From the sequence record OZ346219.1: a stretch of DNA of 64,000 nucleotides. One strand, written 5' to 3'. The notes beneath the pieces were generated by a model, which saw only the letters and a program-made list of their open reading frames with translations, ran no database searches and was not told the DNA's origin. The stretch is from a phage. Shown piece after piece: positions 1-40,684 of this stretch (positions are counted from its first letter, which is position 1; each line of letters starts with the position of its first letter). Both the position numbers and the translations under genes were made by a program.

Positions 1-2817
<2,817 letters not shown>

Positions 2818-2851
2818 ATACGATAATGCATAAAAAGATGAGGAAATTCTA

Positions 2852-4855
2852 ATGACTCTATTATCACCGGGTTTCGAAACGAAAGAAACTACTCTCTCCA
2901 CTACCATTGTGCAATCTGCGACTGGTCGCGCGGCACTGGTAGGTAAATTCCAATGGGGTCCAGCTTTCCAGATTATTCAAGTAACTAATGAAGTTGAATT
3001 AGTTAATAAATTTGGTCAGCCGGATAATAACACCGCAGACTATTTCATGAGCGGGGCTAACTTCCTCCAGTATGGCAATGACCTGCGTGTTGTTCGTGTA
3101 TTGAATAAAGAAAAAGCGAAAAACGCAACTGCCCTAGCTGGTAACATCGAGTTTGAAATCACAAACGAAGGTTCAAACTATGAAGTAGGCGATACCATCA
3201 AGATTAAACATAACCGTCAAGATATTGAAACGGCTGGTAAAGTAACTAAAGTTGATGGTGATGGTAAAGTTAAGGGCGTATTTATCCCAACTGGTAAAAT
3301 TATCGCTCACGCTAAAGCAATCGGTGTATATCCAGAACTTGATGGCGGTTGGACGGCAGAGTTCACTTCTTCGTCAGGTAACGGTAGTGCGGTGCTGTCA
3401 GTAACTAAAATTGTTACTGATTCCGGTCTTCTGTTAACGGATCTGGAAACTTCCCGCGCCAATATCACAAATCAGACTTTCTTGACTAAACTCCAGAAGT
3501 ATGATATGCCAGCGGTAAGCGCGATCTATGCTGGTGAGATTGGCAACTCGCTGGAAGTTGAAATTCTGGCACGTAGCGCGTTCAGTGGCGCGGTAGCACC
3601 TGAATTAACTATGTATCCGTTCGGCGGAACTCGTGCCGCAGCACGCAACCTGATTCCATATGCACCGCAGAATGATAATCAATATGCATTTATTGTTCGT
3701 CGCGATGGTGTTGTGGTAGAATCCTATGTACTGTCTACTCTGAAAGGGGATAAAGACGTATACGGCAATTCTATCTACATGGACGACTTCTTTGCTCGTG
3801 GTTCTAGCCAGTACATCTATGCAACCGCTCAAGGGTGGGTAGATGGTTTCAGTGGTATTATCTCTCTTGCTGGTGGTGTTTCTGCTAACGAAGCAACGAC
3901 TGGTGGAGTTGGTGCTGATCCGTTCATCGGTGCGATGATGCAAGGTTGGGATCTGTTTGCTGAACGAGAATCTATTCACGTAAACCTGTTGATTGCTGGT
4001 GCATGTGCTGGCGAAGGCGATGCGTTCTCTACCGTACAGAAACATGCTGTTTCCATCGGTGATGAGCGTCAGGATTGCTTAGTAATGGTTTCTCCGCCGC
4101 GTAGCACTGTTGTTAATATTCCGGTGACTACTGCAATTGATAACCTGATTGCATGGCGCGAAGGTTCAGGAAACTATAATGAAAACAACATGAACATTAA
4201 TACCACTTACGCGGTTATTGATGGTAACTACAAATATCAGTATGACAAATACAACGACGTAAACCGTTGGGTTCCGTTGGCTGCTGATATTGCTGGTTTG
4301 TGCGCTCGTACTGATGCTGTATCCCAGCCGTGGATGAGTCCGGCAGGTTATAACCGTGGTCAGATCATGAACGTGGTTAAACTGGCAATTGAGCCTCGTA
4401 AGGCGCACCGCGATCGTCTGTATCAGGCCGCAATTAACCCGGTAATCGGTGCTGGCGGTGAAGGGTTTATCCTAATGGGTGATAAAACCGCTACGACTGT
4501 TCCTAGCCCGTTTGACCGCATTAACGTTCGTCGTCTGTTTAACATGCTGAAAAAGAATATCGGCGATTCAAGCAAATACAAACTGTTTGAAAACAACGAT
4601 AACTTTACTCGCGCTTCCTTCCGTATGGAGGTTTCGCAATATCTCAGCACGATTCGCTCTCTGGGTGGCATTTATGACTTCCGAGTACAATGCGACACCA
4701 CGAATAACACGCCGGATGTAATTGATCGTAACGAATTTGTTGCTAGTATGTTCATCAAACCAGCAAAATCGATCAACTATATCATGCTCAATTTCACTGC
4801 TGTTGCAACTGGTTCTGATTTTGACGAAATTATCGGTCCAGCTAACCAGGCATAA
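2852..4855 (+). CDS. 18: tail sheath protein gp18
   Basis: 667 aa; N-terminus MTLLSPG..FQWGPAFQI.QVTNEV and C-terminal NDVNRWVPLAADIAGLCARTD match T4 gp18; RBS gagg upstream. Confidence 0.96.
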   Translation: MTLLSPGFETKETTLSTTIVQSATGRAALVGKFQWGPAFQIIQVTNEVELVNKFGQPDNNTADYFMSGANFLQYGNDLRVVRVLNKEKAKNATALAGNIEFEITNEGSNYEVGDTIKIKHNRQDIETAGKVTKVDGDGKVKGVFIPTGKIIAHAKAIGVYPELDGGWTAEFTSSSGNGSAVLSVTKIVTDSGLLLTDLETSRANITNQTFLTKLQKYDMPAVSAIYAGEIGNSLEVEILARSAFSGAVAPELTMYPFGGTRAAARNLIPYAPQNDNQYAFIVRRDGVVVESYVLSTLKGDKDVYGNSIYMDDFFARGSSQYIYATAQGWVDGFSGIISLAGGVSANEATTGGVGADPFIGAMMQGWDLFAERESIHVNLLIAGACAGEGDAFSTVQKHAVSIGDERQDCLVMVSPPRSTVVNIPVTTAIDNLIAWREGSGNYNENNMNINTTYAVIDGNYKYQYDKYNDVNRWVPLAADIAGLCARTDAVSQPWMSPAGYNRGQIMNVVKLAIEPRKAHRDRLYQAAINPVIGAGGEGFILMGDKTATTVPSPFDRINVRRLFNMLKKNIGDSSKYKLFENNDNFTRASFRMEVSQYLSTIRSLGGIYDFRVQCDTTNNTPDVIDRNEFVASMFIKPAKSINYIMLNFTAVATGSDFDEIIGPANQA

Positions 4856-5481: not shown

Positions 5482-7047
5482 ATGTTTAGTAGATTAAAAA
5501 TGCTTGCGCGTTGGGCTGATTTTGACAACGACAAATACGAAGAACAAATTAAAGATAAAGCAGAGTCTATCGCCGCACCTAAAAACAATGATGGTGCTAC
5601 GGAAGTAGAAATTAATGATAATTCACCTGCTAGCTCGTGGAACTCTCTTACCCAGCAATTTTACAGCACCGACCAGAAAATCAGCACAACTAAGCAATTA
5701 GTTAACACATATCGCGGTTTGATGAATAACCATGAAGTCGAAAACGCTGTACAAAATATCGTTAACGATGCGATTGTATTTGAAGAAGGTCATGAAGTTG
5801 TTTCATTAAATCTTGAGGCGACTGGCTTTAGTGAATCTGTAAAAGAGCGCATTCATGAAGAATTTAAAGATCTTTTAAACACTATCCAGTTTGATAGGCG
5901 CGGTCAGGATATGTTCCGTCGCTGGTATGTCGATTCTCGTATTTTCTTCCATAAAATCATCGGCAAAAATCCAAAAGATGGTATCATAGAATTACGCCAG
6001 CTTGACCCACGTAATCTTGAATACGTTCGAGAGATCATTACAGAAGACACACCGGAAGGTAAAATTTATAAAGCAACGAAAGAATATTTCATTTACACTG
6101 TAGGCAATAGCTCTTATTGCGCAGGTGGTCAAGTATTCTCTCCTAATAGTCGCGTTAAAATCCCGCGTAGTGCTATTACATACGCTCACAGCGGCTTGAT
6201 GGATTGCGATGATAAATATATCATTGGTTATTTGCATCGGGCTGTTAAGCCAGCAAACCAGCTTAAATTGTTGGAAGACGCAATGGTCGTTTATCGTATC
6301 ACGCGTGCACCGGAACGCCGAGTGTTCTTTATTGATACCGGAAACATGAACAACCGCAAGGCTGCACAGCACATGAACTCAGTGGCACAGTCTTTTAAAA
6401 ACCGCGTTGTTTATGATGCATCGACTGGTAAACTTAAAAACCAGCAAGCAAATCTATCAATGACAGAGGACTACTGGTTACAGCGTCGAGATGGTAAAGC
6501 AATCACCGACGTTACTACTTTACCAGGTGCATCCGGTATGAGTGATATCGATGATATTCGCTACTTTAACCGTAAATTGTATGAAGCGTTGCGTGTGCCA
6601 TTGTCACGTAGCAATCTCTCCGATGCAAATATGGTGATCGGTGGTGACGGTTCAGAAATTACTCGCGATGAGTTGGAATTTTCGAAATTCATTAGAACTC
6701 TGCAATCACAGTTTTCGGAAGTATTGCGCGATCCGCTTAAATATAATCTGATTCTCAAAAATGTAATTACGGAAGACGATTGGGATCGTGAAATAAATAA
6801 TATCAAGGTGGTTTTCCATCGGGACTCTTACTATACAGAAGTTAAAGACGCGGAAATTTTAGAGCGTCGAATCGGTCTAATCGAACGTATTACACCTTAC
6901 ATTGGTAAATATTTCTCTAACCAGACAGTGATGCGTGACATTCTGAAATATACCGATGACCAGATGGACACCGAGAAGAAACAGATCGAAGAAGAAGCGA
7001 ACGATCCGCGCTTTAAACAAACTCCCGATGAAATAGAGGATTTTTAA
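5482..7047 (+). CDS. 20: portal vertex protein gp20
   Basis: 521 aa; RRWYVDSRIFFHKII, IGYLHRAVKPANQLKLLEDA, MTEDYWLQRRDGKA match T4 gp20. Confidence 0.96.
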   Translation: MFSRLKMLARWADFDNDKYEEQIKDKAESIAAPKNNDGATEVEINDNSPASSWNSLTQQFYSTDQKISTTKQLVNTYRGLMNNHEVENAVQNIVNDAIVFEEGHEVVSLNLEATGFSESVKERIHEEFKDLLNTIQFDRRGQDMFRRWYVDSRIFFHKIIGKNPKDGIIELRQLDPRNLEYVREIITEDTPEGKIYKATKEYFIYTVGNSSYCAGGQVFSPNSRVKIPRSAITYAHSGLMDCDDKYIIGYLHRAVKPANQLKLLEDAMVVYRITRAPERRVFFIDTGNMNNRKAAQHMNSVAQSFKNRVVYDASTGKLKNQQANLSMTEDYWLQRRDGKAITDVTTLPGASGMSDIDDIRYFNRKLYEALRVPLSRSNLSDANMVIGGDGSEITRDELEFSKFIRTLQSQFSEVLRDPLKYNLILKNVITEDDWDREINNIKVVFHRDSYYTEVKDAEILERRIGLIERITPYIGKYFSNQTVMRDILKYTDDQMDTEKKQIEEEANDPRFKQTPDEIEDF

Positions 7048-7290
7048 ATGAAACAATTTATCGAAGCAATTAAAACTCGCGATCTAACGCTGATCGAAAA
7101 AGAATTTGATAAGATCATGGAGGCTAAAAAAGCCCAGATCATCGAATCCCAGCGTGTCGAAATCGCATCCAGTATCATGATCGAAGGTGAAGAAGAAAAA
7201 GACCGCGATGATGAAAAAGATATGGATGATGAGGACGACGAAGACGAAGATCGCAAAGACGATAAAAAAGACAAAGAAGACGACGAATAA
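7048..7290 (+). CDS. 67: prohead core protein gp67
   Basis: 80 aa, acidic C-terminal tail; position and composition as T4 gp67. Confidence 0.85.
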   Translation: MKQFIEAIKTRDLTLIEKEFDKIMEAKKAQIIESQRVEIASSIMIEGEEEKDRDDEKDMDDEDDEDEDRKDDKKDKEDDE

Positions 7291-11627: not shown

Positions 11628-12869
11628 ATGACTCATATTTTTACTGAACTGTTGCGGGAATCTACTTCCTCAGTAGCTAACCAGACAGCGCGACCGCAAC
11701 TATTATCATTAACTCGCGCGGTAAACAACCTGATTTTCTCTGATCTGGTAGCAATCCAGCCAACGGATCAACCAGTATCTGCATTGTACGGCCTACGTTA
11801 TCTTAATCATGATGGTCAGATGACTTTCCGAACTGCTGCAACCTACGGTGGCGCGGTTGGTGATCGCACAGAGATTGAAGAGTTTTCAAAAGAAAAATCT
11901 TATGACGAAGGCGCACTATTCAAATCAGGCGATGTTGTATACGAAGTTGTGACAGCTGGTACAGTCGGTGAAGATGCCGCAACTCCAGAAGCTGCGATCT
12001 TTAAAGGCGTAATGACAAACAAAATTCGTTTCTATAGCGATTGTGCATCGGTAGAATACTTTGAAGATAAAAACACCGAAATTGCGTCTACCTCTATGCA
12101 GTTTGACAAGTGGCAAGTTAATGTAGGTTCTCGTAAACTGAAAACCTCATTCACGACCGAATTGATGCAGGATCTTGAGGCAAGCCAAATCAACTCTGAA
12201 AACTCTGTAATTGATCTTCTGGCTACTGTTGCTTCCGAAGAGATCAACAAAGATATTATTCAGAAGTTGATCACTGTATCATCTCGCTATAAAATTAAAG
12301 GGATCACCCCTGATGGCGTACTTTCTCTCGTTAGCGTTCAGGATGCACCAACACAAGCGCGTGAACTTTACCGCTACGCGTGCGAGATGAGCAATCAAAT
12401 GTTGCGGACTTCCTCCTTTGCTGGTACATACGTTTTGGCGTCTTCTCGCGTGGTTGGCCTCCTGCAATCATCCGGTTGGATGGAAGAAACCGACAATGCT
12501 CTAAGCGAAGGTCGTCTACGTTGCGGTCTGGAAGTGTACGCAGACACGACAACACCTTTCGATTATATGCTCGTTGGTTGTAAGCACATGATCGGTGATA
12601 TGGAGAGTGTAGGTTCTCTGTTCTACTCCCCATATACAGAAGCCGACGGCGCTGGCGCGTATAAGAGCGTAATTGACCCTAATAGCTTCCAGCATCATGT
12701 AGCTATTATGAATCGTTATTCACTATCTGTCAACCCATACACATCAAAAGTTGATCAGGAAGAACACCAGGTCATCAAGGGTGACGATTGGGGTAAAATG
12801 GCTGGACGTTCAGAAATGTCCTACATTTTAGGAATCGAACTGCCACCGCTTGAGATTGACAACGCTTAA
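11628..12869 (+). CDS. 24: capsid vertex protein gp24
   Basis: start set at MTHIFTELLRE (track ORF begins 11517); LTRA...DLVA.Q.T.QPV.A, KWQ..V.SRKLKT, MAGRSE match T4 gp24. Confidence 0.9.
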   Translation: MTHIFTELLRESTSSVANQTARPQLLSLTRAVNNLIFSDLVAIQPTDQPVSALYGLRYLNHDGQMTFRTAATYGGAVGDRTEIEEFSKEKSYDEGALFKSGDVVYEVVTAGTVGEDAATPEAAIFKGVMTNKIRFYSDCASVEYFEDKNTEIASTSMQFDKWQVNVGSRKLKTSFTTELMQDLEASQINSENSVIDLLATVASEEINKDIIQKLITVSSRYKIKGITPDGVLSLVSVQDAPTQARELYRYACEMSNQMLRTSSFAGTYVLASSRVVGLLQSSGWMEETDNALSEGRLRCGLEVYADTTTPFDYMLVGCKHMIGDMESVGSLFYSPYTEADGAGAYKSVIDPNSFQHHVAIMNRYSLSVNPYTSKVDQEEHQVIKGDDWGKMAGRSEMSYILGIELPPLEIDNA

Positions 12870-13457
12870 CTAAATATCTAACCAAGACAAGTCAGATCCG
12901 CCCAAGATTTTTTCGACGGCGGATCTATTTTCTTGATGATATAAGTTAAAACATGGTATCCCATGTCTACGGGCAACATAAACAGCAATTCTAGTTCCTC
13001 CAGAAACAATCCCATTAACTTCTTTCGCCCAAAATAACACACAATCTACAGGATCATCAAGTGTCTCACCTAAGACTTGAGCAACATTTCTAGAAAACAG
13101 ATTTTGCATGTATAACGGTATAGAACGAGGATTATCATAAACGTGTTCTAATTCATCCATCGCCAGATTTTTTTGTTCTAAGGTTTGCCATGCAATCACA
13201 TCATGACCGTTATGTTTGTGGTCATAAAACTTCCAATTTGGAATGAAAATTTTTCTATAATCTGGATCGTAATACTTCATGAAAGCATTGTCCATACCGT
13301 AAGCCCCTCCAGAATGCGCTACAACGCGATTTTCTGACAATACCCTCCCAATGGTACTAGCCATTATCAAAATGTCGCTAGGCGCTTTTCTAGAGCCGAT
13401 TAAAGCACATCTACGAAGTGGTTTTACTCCAAATAGATCTTGTAACTGGTCAAACAT
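12870..13457 (-). CDS. SLOG-superfamily (DprA/LOG-like) Rossmann-fold protein
   Basis: 195 aa; CALIGSR...VAHSGGAYGMD and IVSGGTRIAVYVA resemble the glycine-rich motifs of DprA/LOG proteins; RBS ggagg. Confidence 0.55.
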   Translation of the reverse strand: MFDQLQDLFGVKPLRRCALIGSRKAPSDILIMASTIGRVLSENRVVAHSGGAYGMDNAFMKYYDPDYRKIFIPNWKFYDHKHNGHDVIAWQTLEQKNLAMDELEHVYDNPRSIPLYMQNLFSRNVAQVLGETLDDPVDCVLFWAKEVNGIVSGGTRIAVYVARRHGIPCFNLYHQENRSAVEKILGGSDLSWLDI

Positions 13458-13610
13458 AATATTTCCTCCATAGAAAGCAATATCATACTACAAGTTAATA
13501 ACAAATACAAGTATCCGCGTAGCGGAAGCGAGCACAGCGAGCATTAAAAACACTTCCAGTAATTGATTAATAAATGTTCGAAACAAATTTTTATTATTCT
13601 ATAAGATAAG

Positions 13611-13785
13611 TCTTCGTTTTGATCATAATTTAATCATACATGTAAAAACTACACAAAAGGATATCGCTTCGCGAACTCCTACGGAGTATAACATTTGTGT
13701 TACAATATGTAGTGATTAATAATTAACCAAAGATACATTTTCTATGTTCTAAAGATCTTTCTTCGTTTTGATCATAATTTAATCA
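13611..13785. repeat. two 26-bp direct repeats in an AT-rich 410-bp intergenic region
   Basis: tcttcgttttgatcataatttaatca at 13611-13636 and 13760-13785. Confidence 0.7.
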
Positions 13786-13838
13786 AACAGTATTAATATT
13801 GTGCACATGTAAACTAAAATTATGTTAATAACATATAC

Positions 13839-13863
13839 AAAAAAGCCGCCCCGAAGGACGGCT
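13839..13863 (-). terminator. rho-independent terminator (leftward)
   Basis: A-run then agccg..ccccgaagg..cggct hairpin on + strand, i.e. hairpin plus T-run on - strand, just 3' of ORF 13872-14309. Confidence 0.6.
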
Positions 13864-13871
13864 AATGTTAA

Positions 13872-14992: not shown

Positions 14993-15017
14993 AAAAAAGC
15001 CACCCCGAAGGATGGCT
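14993..15017 (-). terminator. rho-independent terminator (leftward)
   Basis: agcca..ccccgaagg..tggct hairpin preceded by A-run on + strand, 3' of hoc. Confidence 0.6.
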
Positions 15018-15028
15018 GATAGATTTCA

Positions 15029-15769
15029 TTAAGCAGGATGCGTTTCACGAATGCGTAGAACTCGCTCTAACGTCTCTCGGTCCAGCTTATGTAACTCTTT
15101 GGAATGATACATGAAACCATTGCGAGATTCCATGCAAGTGCAATCACTATATTTTTCTTCCGCTGCCGCGATTGTCTCCAGATCTTTGGCGTACTTGCTG
15201 GTAGAATAAACTTCTCGGTCACGCCACTCTAACCCAGCCTCATTGAATTTAACAATCTCGTCAAATACCCACCATCCAATGTAGATAAATGAAGTTTTGC
15301 GCCACGGGATCGGGTGTACGTAACGAAACATTTTAACAACTTCCATTGAACATTTTCTACTTGTACTTGTTGCAACTTCTACTGGTTCATCTTCAATCTG
15401 TTGATATAGTTTAGCAACACACCAGAATTTGGCTGTGTCATCGTAAGTAGCACTCTCTTTGAACAGATGACCGTCTGGCATGATAGAAAATCCTTCCAGT
15501 GCTTCGCCGACCTCACTACCGATTAGAGTCGGTGACGGTTGCCCTTCGCGCTGCAAATACCAGTTATATTTGATCGTCAAATTAGGCATACCGCTAGAAT
15601 CACCTACAATGTCCTCTGACACAACATAATTAAGTGATATCTCATTACCTAGTGCCACGGTCTTTGATTCCACCACATCCTGATCTACGTTCATTGTTGC
15701 CAGCATGATTTTAGTCGATGCGCTAGCGGCTGAATCTTCCGACTCACCCCACACTTTTACAGTATACAC
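15029..15769 (-). CDS. hoc: Hoc outer capsid protein, C-terminal part (after -1 frameshift)
   Basis: YVHPIPWRKTSFIYIGWWVFDEI...ESRNGFMYHSKELH matches T4 Hoc capsid-binding C-terminus; track start is GTG. Confidence 0.7.
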   Translation of the reverse strand: MYTVKVWGESEDSAASASTKIMLATMNVDQDVVESKTVALGNEISLNYVVSEDIVGDSSGMPNLTIKYNWYLQREGQPSPTLIGSEVGEALEGFSIMPDGHLFKESATYDDTAKFWCVAKLYQQIEDEPVEVATSTSRKCSMEVVKMFRYVHPIPWRKTSFIYIGWWVFDEIVKFNEAGLEWRDREVYSTSKYAKDLETIAAAEEKYSDCTCMESRNGFMYHSKELHKLDRETLERVLRIRETHPA

Positions 15770-16242
15770 GCCGTTTTTATCTGCTGTAAATTCTTGGATT
15801 GTAATATCTTTTTTGTGTCTATAACGTCTTCGCCCTTACTCCAACTATAATGTAGTTCATAGTTGTCTGCTGGAGTCTTCCCACCAGAAAAATTTACTGT
15901 TGCATGTAATTCTACGTCTTTTTGTAATGATACGTAGAAATGCTGCGGTTCGGTGATATTTACGATTAATTCAGCTTCTTCCATGAGGAAAACTTCAGAT
16001 TCTACTGATTCCGTCGTATCGGTATCTTGTACCGTTACTTTATAGCTACCTGCATTTTCACTTGTTGCGTCTGCTACAGTTAGCGTAGCTGTGTTATTTT
16101 CATGCGGTTGGTCGTCTTTTGTCCATGTATATGTCAAATTGCTGGGTAATGGTTCGTCACCCGCTACAGTCGCCGTTAAGGTGAAACCATCTCCAGCAAG
16201 AAAACATCTTTTGTTAGATTGTATTGATACTGTGAAAGCCAT
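15757..16242 (-). CDS. hoc: Hoc outer capsid protein, N-terminal Ig-like part (ends at frameshift)
   Basis: MAFTVSIQ...FTLTATVAG...LTYTWTKDD resembles T4 Hoc N-terminus; ORF stops just after an A6 run. Confidence 0.7.
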   Translation of the reverse strand: MAFTVSIQSNKRCFLAGDGFTLTATVAGDEPLPSNLTYTWTKDDQPHENNTATLTVADATSENAGSYKVTVQDTDTTESVESEVFLMEEAELIVNITEPQHFYVSLQKDVELHATVNFSGGKTPADNYELHYSWSKGEDVIDTKKILQSKNLQQIKTACIL

Positions 16243-38252: not shown

Positions 38253-38729
38253 TTATTTTTCTTGATGCTCGCGATCGTACTTTTCGAAATAAAATTCTAC
38301 TGGCTGGTCATGAATTGACAGTAAGCCAAAGCGTTTAGCCGCTCGCAATCCCATATTGCGCTGAATGTACTTCTGGAAGTTCTCGCGTATACACTTACGC
38401 CAGTATTCTAAGCCCATACAGCTTTTATAAAGATTGCATTGCACACACGCCGGATTCATGTTATCAAGTATATCATGTTCCGGTTTATGCATTCCTACAA
38501 CCTTATACTTCCACGATCCATCATCATTACGGGCAATTCGTCCATTTTCATCATAGACTACCTTTGAGCGTCGCAATACTGGTTTGATGTGGTCTGCGTG
38601 CCAGCGATCCCCTAGTTCCTCGCCACAATAGGCACAACGTCCACCATATTTCATTTTCAGGATCTGGCGTTGCTCTTTCTTTGACATTTTTTTAGGTTTA
38701 GGGGCTTTCGCCCCTTCATTATCACACAT
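38253..38729 (-). CDS. HNH endonuclease
   Basis: 158 aa; CAYCG...HADHIKP...CVQCN HNH motif. Confidence 0.65.
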   Translation of the reverse strand: MCDNEGAKAPKPKKMSKKEQRQILKMKYGGRCAYCGEELGDRWHADHIKPVLRRSKVVYDENGRIARNDDGSWKYKVVGMHKPEHDILDNMNPACVQCNLYKSCMGLEYWRKCIRENFQKYIQRNMGLRAAKRFGLLSIHDQPVEFYFEKYDREHQEK

Positions 38730-40224
38730 CGAATACCTCTTTTACTGTATTTGCAGTGGTCTTGTCGTATCGAATACGTTTGATGATCGGGAGAAATAAA
38801 GAGAACTCCGGTTCATCTTCTTTACGTGATTTGCTGCGGATATACCCGTTGCATGTCATCTCAATGACTTTTCCAATCAGGTTATGACGGTCAGCCCATA
38901 ACATTTCTCGGTCGAGTTCATTTCGACGATCGAACGGAATTACACGTTCAGTACCATCATCACCTTTTTCGGTTGTAGTGTCGGTTAATCCCGATCCGGT
39001 GTTAGTCATCATTCGTCCGCACGCACTACGGACAGTAAAACCGCCTACCTTATTGGGGTCTTTACTATGCGGATATACATCAACAATTTCCGCGTCGAAG
39101 TCAATCACTTCTTTAAATTTAACCTGATCTTTACTACGGCGATCTTCAAATACACCATGTAAATTTTTAAGGATAATACCTTCTAAGCCCATGTTGACAT
39201 AACGATGATATACTTCGCGAGCTTCATCGATATTGTTAACTACAGTGTTTTCGATGATCTGAACACGAGGATCGTTAAGTTCTTCAACAATCTGTTTTAG
39301 TTCTTCGAATCGATCTTTATATTGCTTCGTTGCTTTCTCGTTTCCGTAATACACATCACGGTCGATAACATCCCAGACAGTGTAAACAATACATTGGGCT
39401 TCTTCTTTTGGAATAGTTCCTTTCAGTGATTTGTTGAGGATACCATTTCCGGTCTGACGATCTGCAACAACGGATTCTTTTACTGCTTCCGCTACTGGCG
39501 TTAATGGCATTTCCTCTTCTTCAAATATCCATGACAGAGTACCATCATAAACGCTTTCAACGAAGTTCTGCGCTGGTGTTTGCGAAAGGGTAGGCATATA
39601 TACCAATTCCCCATCTAGAACAATTCCACGGCCTCGTAGACGCTCTAAAACCGCAAACAAATCATCAAGCCCTTGATAGGTATTACCTGAGCGGGTATAG
39701 ATTGCTAATGTTTCCCCGTCAATATCAGCCATACCACGAGCGCCATCGCTTTTAAGTTGTGCATACGCCGGATACTTGATATTAGCAATAGTCTTATCAG
39801 AACATGACGATGCAAGGTGGCACGGTTGCTGAGGGATCAGTTTCTTCCATACCTTGTTTGCGGTGGTAGCGGAACAACCGCATTCCAGATCACGATTCAG
39901 GACCATCATTGCAACTTTAGCATCATCCTCTGACAAGCAAGTCAGAGTATCGGTAACTAGCTGTAATGCTGCATTACCAGTTACTTGACGCGTGGCAAGT
40001 TTATTTTTAAAGACCTGTAATGCACCGGATAAAGACAATACAGACGAATAGCGAGATGGTTTATCGTATTTCTTTACGCCAAACGTAACCTGTTTGCAAT
40101 ATGCCAGATAAAAGCATTCTTTCAGCGTTTCATTGCTTGCTGATTCTTTCAGAATCTTTTCTTTCAGCGATGTTTTGTCTGTTGCTGCAAGCTGATTAAT
40201 GATATTAAGAATTGACATTTTCAC
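38722..40224 (-). CDS. 30: ATP-dependent DNA ligase gp30
   Basis: 500 aa; adenylation motif AQLKSDGAR; LDGELVY, GLEGIILK, KFKEVID as in T4 ligase. Confidence 0.92.
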   Translation of the reverse strand: MKMSILNIINQLAATDKTSLKEKILKESASNETLKECFYLAYCKQVTFGVKKYDKPSRYSSVLSLSGALQVFKNKLATRQVTGNAALQLVTDTLTCLSEDDAKVAMMVLNRDLECGCSATTANKVWKKLIPQQPCHLASSCSDKTIANIKYPAYAQLKSDGARGMADIDGETLAIYTRSGNTYQGLDDLFAVLERLRGRGIVLDGELVYMPTLSQTPAQNFVESVYDGTLSWIFEEEEMPLTPVAEAVKESVVADRQTGNGILNKSLKGTIPKEEAQCIVYTVWDVIDRDVYYGNEKATKQYKDRFEELKQIVEELNDPRVQIIENTVVNNIDEAREVYHRYVNMGLEGIILKNLHGVFEDRRSKDQVKFKEVIDFDAEIVDVYPHSKDPNKVGGFTVRSACGRMMTNTGSGLTDTTTEKGDDGTERVIPFDRRNELDREMLWADRHNLIGKVIEMTCNGYIRSKSRKEDEPEFSLFLPIIKRIRYDKTTANTVKEVFDV

Positions 40225-40684
40225 CTCGTTTTGTTAAACGTTCACGAATATCATTGAGGATACTACAAAATTCCGATTCAGTCAATATAGTCTTTAACGG
40301 ATCAGTTCCACCTATACTATGACGTAATTTCTTATTTCCGGTAGCGAGTAATGCTTTACAAAATTCTGGGTTATTCCGTGCCATCGTAACAAATGCCAGA
40401 TGCACCAGTCTGTAATAATGCTCACTCATTCGATGAATCGGGCGACCCTGAAAATATAACAGGTGATTCTCAATCTTTTCAGTTCTTCCGGTTCTTTTTG
40501 CTTTGCCACCGTGCATCAAAAAGATTTCTCTTTGTCTCTGAGGGTTCTTAAATCTTAGCCCCTGTAAAAATCCTTCTGTGCTGTTAATATCGCAACCAAA
40601 TAAACGGAATGGTCTTTTATTGAAATTACTCAATTCACCCGATGGATAAGGTCCACCCGCATAGATATCAATTTCAGAAGTCAT
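40205..40684 (-). CDS. NADAR (YbiA-like) domain protein
   Basis: 159 aa; LSNF..RPF.LFG, STEGFLQG, LLATGNKKL resemble NADAR/DUF1768 pattern. Confidence 0.5.
   Translation of the reverse strand: MTSEIDIYAGGPYPSGELSNFNKRPFRLFGCDINSTEGFLQGLRFKNPQRQREIFLMHGGKAKRTGRTEKIENHLLYFQGRPIHRMSEHYYRLVHLAFVTMARNNPEFCKALLATGNKKLRHSIGGTDPLKTILTESEFCSILNDIRERLTKRGENVNS

Follow-up and report, generated by a model that had tools for sequence, protein, structure and literature searches.

A DprA-clade SLOG protein encoded beside gene 24 of a Krischvirus: a conserved nucleotide-binding-type pocket and a possible role in counter-defence or repair

Results

The gene and its locus

In the present study, a phage sequence of 64,000 nucleotides (record OZ346219.1; the whole stretch is hereafter the window) was analysed with respect to a single open reading frame (ORF) located at 12870..13457 on the minus strand, which starts with ATG in the ORF listing of the window and encodes a protein of 195 amino acids (aa). 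The coding sequence comprises a single Rossmannoid domain of the SLOG superfamily (DprA clade) and is the orthologue of RB49p164 (NP_891735.1); a sequence-only reading had given the same ORF and length, omitting the minus strand. The window is a Krischvirus (RB49-, Phi1- and kaaroe-like) genome sequence, and the 3.5-kb region used as the query is 99.5% identical to Escherichia phage kaaroe. A GGAGG ribosome-binding site, read off the sequence, lies 7 nt 5' of the ATG (13465..13469, minus strand). The gene is flanked by gp24 and small phage ORFs. It converges with gene 24, whose TAA stop codon (12867-12869) is followed by the TAG of the SLOG gene (12870-12872). With gene 24 on the plus strand and the SLOG gene on the minus strand, the two stop codons thus abut within 12867-12872, with zero spacer and no terminator between them, unlike the corresponding junction of Citrobacter phage Moon, which contains a bidirectional terminator.

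This ORF is a real gene and not a chance ORF; it is retained at 95% identity or more in 59 Krischvirus records and homologues of its product were detected using tblastn in 1,343 phage records, with hosts including Klebsiella, Pseudomonas, Aeromonas, Vibrio and Acinetobacter. No paralogues were found within the window. Both the gene and its SLOG/DprA-like classification are already present in public databases and in the comparative-genomics literature, and as stated they contain nothing new: the exact protein sequence is found in GenBank and UniRef, and the RB49 copy is named "DprA-like DNA recombination-mediator protein" in RefSeq. Some GenBank records, e.g. those of Escherichia phage Skers and Pantoea phage Phynn, give the name "putative RNA ligase" or "RNA ligase" to the protein or to one of its close homologues, which is probably an annotation transferred by position from T4 rnlB.

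Fold and profile searches

The protein matched PHROG 768 over its full length (E-value 2e-60, 204.6 bits; aa 15-187 against profile positions 4-181 of 191). The match to Pfam DprA (PF02481), the sole Pfam domain match in the protein, reached 22.3 bits, below the gathering cut-off of 29.6, and covered only aa 15-60 (46 residues), and the NCBIfam dprA profile (TIGR00732) scored 14.4 bits against a cut-off of 191. No match to Pfam LOG was found for the window protein or the members scanned, none to PF10686 (YAcAr/YspA) for the window protein or any of 33 homologues, and none to the YpsA profile (PF06908) for the window protein. In a profile search of the PDB, DprA was aligned over profile positions 6-54 only and LOG appeared at an E-value of 0.096, and hhalign of the family against Escherichia coli Smf covered only the N-terminal 64 columns, with a probability of 5.5%. 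A significant full-length alignment to true DprA was sought and was not obtained in these last two comparisons. PADLOC returned weak partial matches to the DprA-like antitoxins PsyrA and ShosA, spanning about 45 aa of a shared N-terminal motif.

An AlphaFold2 model was built from an alignment of 33 homologues (word-indexed protein searches gave 6 and then 32 matches). The model consists of a single domain (predicted local distance difference test, pLDDT, 94.1; predicted template modelling score, pTM, 0.89) whose Rossmannoid alpha/beta fold has three layers and can be superposed on several SLOG families, DprA first, and Helicobacter pylori DprA (HpDprA) ranked first when this model was used in Foldseek (E-value 9e-6). 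In the viral structure library BFVD, phage proteins of the same family gave template modelling scores of 0.7-0.8, and YspA/YAcAr SLOG proteins gave about 0.45. The sequence-only reading had placed the protein among the SLOG (DprA/LOG-like) proteins, and this placement is supported by the profile and structure searches, in which SLOG/DprA matches were obtained, and by the conserved motifs described below. The protein can be assigned firmly to the SLOG superfamily; among the named families DprA is the nearest, but only marginally so.

The conserved pocket

An exhaustive profile search retrieved 6,318 cluster representatives (50% identity) at E-values of 1e-3 or lower and 2,139 at 1e-30 or lower, and most of the members are stand-alone proteins of 170-195 aa. 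Among 243 distinct members, the glycine-rich loops after strands 1 and 2 and the GG(x)T loop after strand 4 (GSR, SGxAxGxD and GGT) are kept in at least 232. The motifs quoted in the sequence-only reading were confirmed in the window protein, i.e. ALIGSR at aa 18-23, VAHSGGAYGMD at aa 46-56 and IVSGGTRIAVYVA at aa 150-162.

Four motifs line the putative pocket, all encoded on the minus strand. First, G21-S22-R23 (codons at 13389..13397), in the loop that follows strand 1, is present in 241, 233 and 240 members, respectively, and aligns with GTR of HpDprA and GSR of Smf. Second, S49-G-G-A-Y-G-M-D56 (13290..13313) forms the SGxAxGxD loop and helix start after strand 2 and aligns with SGxAxGxD of DprA; S49, G50, A52, G54 and D56 are each kept in at least 232 members. 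Third, the RNxxQ motif is represented by R123-N124-V-A-Q127 (13077..13091), with R123 in all 243 members, N124 in 238 and Q127 in 239. Fourth, G153-G154-T155-R-I-A158 (12984..13001) corresponds to the GGTxxA motif (G153 in 241, G154 in 242, T155 in 241 and A158 in 236 members). The near-invariant residues also include P73, F77, A162 and N171.

The ordered set of DprA motifs used for comparison was GxR, SGxAxGxD, FxxRNR and SGSxxTA...G..vF. When Smf and the phage protein were compared by eye, one-to-one counterparts in identical order were observed for all five DprA Rossmann-domain motifs: VVGSR of Smf and LIGSR of the phage protein, SGLARGID and SGGAYGMD, GNGLN and the phage family consensus xxGFN, FPRRNRII and LFSRNVAQ, and SGSLVTARCALEQGREVFAL and SGGTRIAVYVARRHGIPCFNL. 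The comparison with FPRRNRII, also made by eye, identifies RNxxQ as the counterpart of FxxRNR in DprA, of R115-K116 in LOG and of R89-N90 in ORF83 of phage PhiDruSM1, the latter two pairs being site residues described in the EVADES preprint. R52 and R143 are needed for single-stranded DNA (ssDNA) binding in DprA/ShosA (PMC12961424). R23 aligns with R52 of H. pylori DprA and may be the equivalent of this ssDNA/phosphate-binding residue, and R123, judged by spacing and the by-eye comparison, may be the equivalent of R143.

In LOG proteins, the catalytic Glu is located three residues past the Thr of PGGxGTxxE, as in T175/E178 of Cg1261 (EVADES preprint). The corresponding position in the phage family, residue 158 (T155+3), is Ala in 236 of the 243 members and Asp or Glu in none, and a LOG-type phosphoribohydrolase mechanism is therefore unlikely.

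Domain fusions

Twenty multi-domain members, the longest proteins among the best 150 matches, were scanned against Pfam. Fusion to ADP-ribose-processing domains was observed in nine (NADAR in six, DUF4326 in two and Macro in one). A RecJ (DHH-DHHA1-OB) fusion was found in one of the 20 and DUF7831 in two, additional SLOG modules (YAcAr, LDcluster4) were present in two proteins of 1,475 and 1,488 aa, and other members bear unassigned extensions. The full pocket signature is kept in all of the fusion proteins.

Gene neighbourhoods

To describe viral neighbourhoods, ORFs were called and clustered at 80 IMG/VR loci, giving 49 lineages at less than 70% identity. The sole recurrent adjacent genes were T4-type capsid genes, which adjoin the SLOG gene on the opposite strand in eight lineages (simple synteny), and RNA ligase 2 (Rnl2), which is directly upstream on the same strand in six. 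In KP15, the Rnl2 stop and the SLOG start overlap by 11 nt and the pair is located away from gene 24, and in Citrobacter phage Moon the order is gene 24, SLOG gene, rnlB; since the Rnl2-SLOG pair occurs at two different genome positions, the two genes move together. The T5-like phage Slocum has a 14-nt overlap between the SLOG gene and the start of an NAD-dependent DNA ligase gene. The SLOG gene thus appears to share an operon with a ligase gene in both cases, RNA ligase 2 in T4-like phages and an NAD-dependent ligase in a T5-like phage.

Within two to four genes of the SLOG gene, the NAPRTase/NAMPT (NadV-type) family was the most recurrent Pfam family (four of the 49 lineages), tied with PTH2 (four), and NUDIX, NADAR, DUF4326, DUF1937, Thg1 and another RNA ligase were observed once each. 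In Pseudomonas phage JG004 (locus positions 1-4082), the order is a Prs-like gene, NadV, one other gene, Macro, one other gene and the SLOG gene. The Macro gene of JG004 is annotated "phosphatase", and the cluster resembles a nicotinamide adenine dinucleotide (NAD+) reconstitution module plus ADP-ribose-handling genes. Bacterial genomes were scanned using the profile of a tighter subgroup of the family, and the 15 loci with a callable SLOG ORF are prophage-like (portal, integrase); NADAR was the sole recurrent neighbour at these loci (two of 15), and DUF4326 and the anti-defence gene Gad1 were found once each.

At the T4 locus, gene 24 is directly followed by rnlB and there is no SLOG gene, as the sequence-only reading had stated. 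Three states of this locus are therefore seen: gene 24 and rnlB in T4, gene 24 followed by the SLOG gene and rnlB in Moon, and gene 24 and the SLOG gene in the window phage. Neither the window nor 153 kb of RB49 gave an Rnl2 signal when translated in all six frames. RB49 encodes UvsX, UvsY, gp32, Alt, ModB, the Tk.4 macro protein, Rnl1, PseT, the gp30 ligase and gp30.3. In the window, the homologue of gp30.3, a member of the NADAR family (Pfam PF08010, E-value 2e-38), is located at 40205-40684 on the minus strand and adjoins a DNA ligase gene at 38722-40224 (minus strand); this gp30.3 homologue is a candidate partner for the SLOG protein.

The upstream region and nearby features

The SLOG gene lies on the same strand as the adjoining cluster of leftward genes, and the non-coding gap upstream of it (13458-13871) is unusually long, at 414 nt. 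The gap contains two copies of a 38-nt direct repeat (13603-13640 and 13752-13789), the 25-nt core of which is absent from the rest of the window, and a 17-nt repeat at 13494-13510 and 13824-13840. Searching the gap against Rfam gave sub-threshold matches to a terminator hairpin only, and the fold z-score was -2.09. The possibility that the gap is a decayed rnlB was rejected, as the six-frame translations of the window contain no Rnl2 signal.

A standard scan detected no promoter-like site in the gap on the strand of the SLOG gene. In our own scan, the sole promoter-like match near the gene was a weak sigma-70-like candidate, TTGTAT-17-TATGAT, at 13482..13510 (minus strand), matching at 8 of 12 positions. 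No strong early or late promoter was found for the SLOG gene, this 8/12 candidate being the best match, in contrast to the annotated early promoters of RB49, which are near-consensus. Near-consensus sigma-70 promoters (12/12 in the scan) flank small ORFs further upstream, at 14411-14384 and 14982-14955 (both minus strand), and an intrinsic terminator at 13863-13844 (minus strand) and the 414-nt gap stand between these promoters and the SLOG gene. The terminator hairpins at 13844-13863 and 14998-15017 (minus strand) have the nearly identical stem AGCC(G/A)TCCTTCGGGG(C/T)GGCT. Together, the hairpins and promoters look like repeated promoter/terminator cassettes, which have been described for RB49-type phages. 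Further upstream, a hoc-like gene is split into two overlapping minus-strand ORFs, 15757-16242 (161 aa) and 15029-15769 (246 aa); hoc of RB49 is annotated as one coding sequence of 1,215 nt, and the split in the window (15029-16242) represents a frameshift or a sequencing error.

Discussion

Several links between phage proteins and ADP-ribose chemistry provide the background to these results. The T4 protein gp30.3 is AdfN, a NADAR enzyme that removes ADP-ribose from guanine in DNA and thereby defeats DarTG1; DarT toxins modify ssDNA, and AdfN is fully active only in T-even infection, possibly needing another phage protein (PMC11825919; PMC11125620). Herein, we propose that the stand-alone DprA-clade SLOG protein is a non-catalytic binder of ADP-ribose- or adenosine monophosphate (AMP)-type moieties that supports counter-defence or repair, and we assign this proposal a probability of about 40%. 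First, the pocket formed by GSR, SGxAxGxD, RNxxQ and GGTxxA would bind the phosphate-ribose-base part of a nucleotide, and the protein would serve as a binding module and not as a LOG-type hydrolase. Second, the ligand would be of the ADP-ribose or AMP type and would most probably be attached to single-stranded nucleic acid; examples are DNA that DarT-like toxins of the host have ADP-ribosylated and strand ends that are adenylated or damaged. Third, the protein would aid ADP-ribose-removing enzymes (NADAR enzymes such as gp30.3 and Macro proteins such as Tk.4) and nick-sealing ligases in clearing and repairing such lesions, thus acting as an accessory factor in counter-defence or repair and not as a mediator that loads RecA or UvsX. 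We infer the ligand, the non-catalytic mode, the partnership with NADAR, Macro and ligase proteins and the defence target from the pocket and from the genes to which the family is linked. The SLOG gene probably helps the phage to resist host defences rather than mediating DNA recombination, and the database name "recombination mediator" is probably misleading. With PHROG 768 and the RefSeq entry for RB49p164 the present analysis shares the family, and within Krischvirus the same gene; it differs solely in interpretation, the "recombination mediator" name having been transferred from distant similarity.

An experimental parallel is offered by a sister SLOG family. Deletion of either ORF83 (annotated Smf/DprA) or ORF55 (a DNA ligase) of PhiDruSM1 lowers plating on an Avs type III host (bioRxiv 10.1101/2024.04.14.589459). 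The preprint of Silas et al. makes no mention of Smf, DprA or Avs. ORF83 and its relative gp82 of Escherichia phage CAjan (YAcAr, PF10686) share with the phage family the SLOG four-motif logic (GGR, GDADGVD, RN and GGxGT), and ORF83 is likewise a small stand-alone phage protein first annotated as Smf/DprA, with homologues fused to DUF4326. It differs in having 130 aa and an Asp near the LOG Glu position, where the present family has Ala. Homology was rejected, in that CAjan gp82 was detected neither by the hidden Markov model of the family (E-value > 1) nor by hhalign and belongs to a different SLOG family. Since ORF83 is a YAcAr protein, its Avs type III phenotype is an analogy only and not evidence on the window gene; as such an analogy, the joint connection of a SLOG protein and a ligase with Avs type III may be counted in favour of our proposal. 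CAjan gp82 (6867-7256, plus strand), which is annotated "GTP-binding domain", is a YAcAr SLOG protein (PF10686, E-value 2e-18) and the likely orthologue of ORF83, because R89, N90, T112 and D114 match exactly. In tracing ORF83 from the EVADES preprint to Ojima et al., no homologue was found in the first 50 kb of the 56.7-kb record of phage 9g.

Several of our results weigh against the binding hypothesis. The fusion sample was non-random, and stand-alone proteins account for more than 80% of the family members listed. Fusions and neighbourhoods show the linkage of two functions and do not identify a ligand, and the same context data fit the soluble ADP-ribose-derived ligand of Iyer et al. Most of the neighbourhoods are unremarkable early-gene clusters, NadV occurs in just four of the 49 lineages, and Rnl2 is confined to T4-like phages. 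In addition, neither partnership is obligatory, since RB49-type phages are without Rnl2 and T4 has AdfN and no SLOG gene at the locus. The equivalence of R123 and DprA R143 was drawn by eye, with hhalign covering the N-terminal 64 columns only, and the strict conservation of the polar residues D56, N124, Q127 and N171 would also fit an unrecognised catalytic activity.

The main rival explanation, which we consider somewhat doubtful, is that the SLOG protein senses, sequesters or degrades soluble ADP-ribose-derived molecules. The pocket would then bind signals of the cyclic ADP-ribose (cADPR) type or toxic NAD+ breakdown products from host TIR, SIR2 or ART systems, and the protein would act as a sponge or would cleave the ribosyl-adenine bond, leaving NADAR, Macro or Nudix enzymes to finish the process. 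This explanation fits the same fusion and neighbourhood data, and is close to a computational survey of viral SLOG domains, which described fusions to Macro and NADAR and an association with DUF4326, and assigned to these domains a predicted role in sensing or degrading immune signals derived from ADP-ribose (Iyer et al. 2022, PMC9503650). The SLOG proteins of that survey resemble the present family in being fused to NADAR, Macro and DUF4326, in lying near NAD+ salvage genes, in occurring as stand-alone proteins in large phages and in co-occurring with gp30.3 NADAR and Tk.4 Macro in one genome; the prediction was made at the level of the superfamily only, for sensors or degraders of soluble ADP-ribose signals. 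However, in both sequence and structure the window protein resembles DprA more than it does ThsA-SLOG or YpsA, and the putative counterparts of the two core nucleic-acid-binding arginines of DprA appear to be retained. Moreover, the RNA ligase 2 and NAD-dependent DNA ligase operons and the RecJ fusion point to nucleic-acid substrates, and because there is no acidic residue at the LOG catalytic position, degradation would need a different chemistry.

It is unlikely, in our estimation, that the protein is a genuine DprA-like recombination mediator or ssDNA binder that coats or protects phage ssDNA or loads UvsX or host RecA. DprA is indeed the best structural and sequence match, with ordered counterparts of all five Rossmann-domain motifs in the by-eye comparison, a fusion to the ssDNA exonuclease RecJ occurs in one relative, and jumbo-phage DprA/Smf-type SLOG proteins have been noted as possible extra ssDNA binders (Iyer et al. 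2021, PMC7824862). Despite this resemblance, the protein does not reach the gathering score of Pfam DprA and matches that profile over 46 residues only, and in comparison with DprA/Smf (PF02481; PDB 3maj, 4ljk and 3uqz) the model has neither the N-terminal SAM domain nor the C-terminal DML1/winged-helix domain. About 130 of the 195 residues superpose on DprA, with a family-specific insert at approximately aa 60-115, and Q127 and N171 are invariant in the phage family and not in DprA. The contexts also differ, with DprA occurring among competence genes and the phage protein among phage early genes. In addition, UvsX, UvsY and gp32 are already present in RB49-type phages, the recurrent fusion partners are ADP-ribose erasers and not recombination proteins, and the related ORF83 was reported to be without the DprA dimerisation and RecA-binding residues (EVADES preprint). 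The isoelectric points of the family range from 5.0 to 9.5, with 6.4 for the window protein, and this also counts against a mediator.

We regard it as very unlikely that the protein hydrolyses AMP or a modified nucleotide as a LOG-like phosphoribohydrolase or N-glycosidase, which is what has been proposed for ORF83: compared with LOG phosphoribohydrolases (PDB 5wq3, 9us2 and 1wek), the phage protein has the invariant Ala158 in place of the catalytic Glu of PGGxGTxxE, and LOG was matched in the PDB profile search only at the E-value given above and not at all in Pfam. It is highly improbable that the protein is a phage copy of the ShosA or PsyrA antitoxin and prevents the ShosT or PsyrT toxin of the host from acting while the phage infects, because the matches to these antitoxins are limited to about 45 residues in the N-terminal motif that they share, ShosA needs a SAM domain, a dimer interface and RecA binding, the phage protein is without a SAM domain and without a nearby cognate toxin gene (phosphoribosyltransferase (PRTase)/RecQ-type), and the fusions and neighbourhoods give no pointer to PRTase toxins.

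To return to the binding hypothesis, its most specific version is rather doubtful: the PHROG-768 SLOG protein would act as a partner that recognises the lesion or ligand for ADP-ribose erasers (NADAR/AdfN and Macro) and nick-sealing ligases, binding ADP-ribosylated or adenylated single-stranded nucleic acid through its DprA-type pocket, and would thereby help to undo the ADP-ribosylation of DNA or RNA by DarT-like toxins. If true, this version would provide a function for a family that is mis-annotated and comprises more than 6,000 sequence clusters, and the protein might be the "additional phage protein" invoked to explain the dependence of AdfN on the infecting phage. The family ranks among the more widely distributed accessory proteins of phages (more than 1,300 phage genomes; 6,318 clusters at the 50% identity level). 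Its size and its consistent link to ADP-ribose erasers make it a reasonable and cheap experimental target, and RB49-type coliphages are genetically tractable. The NADAR, Macro and DUF4326 fusions and the ligase operons place the family in the conflict between phages and bacteria over NAD+ and ADP-ribose, a field in which counter-defence enzymes such as AdfN, the NARP pathways and the Tad proteins have been characterised only recently.

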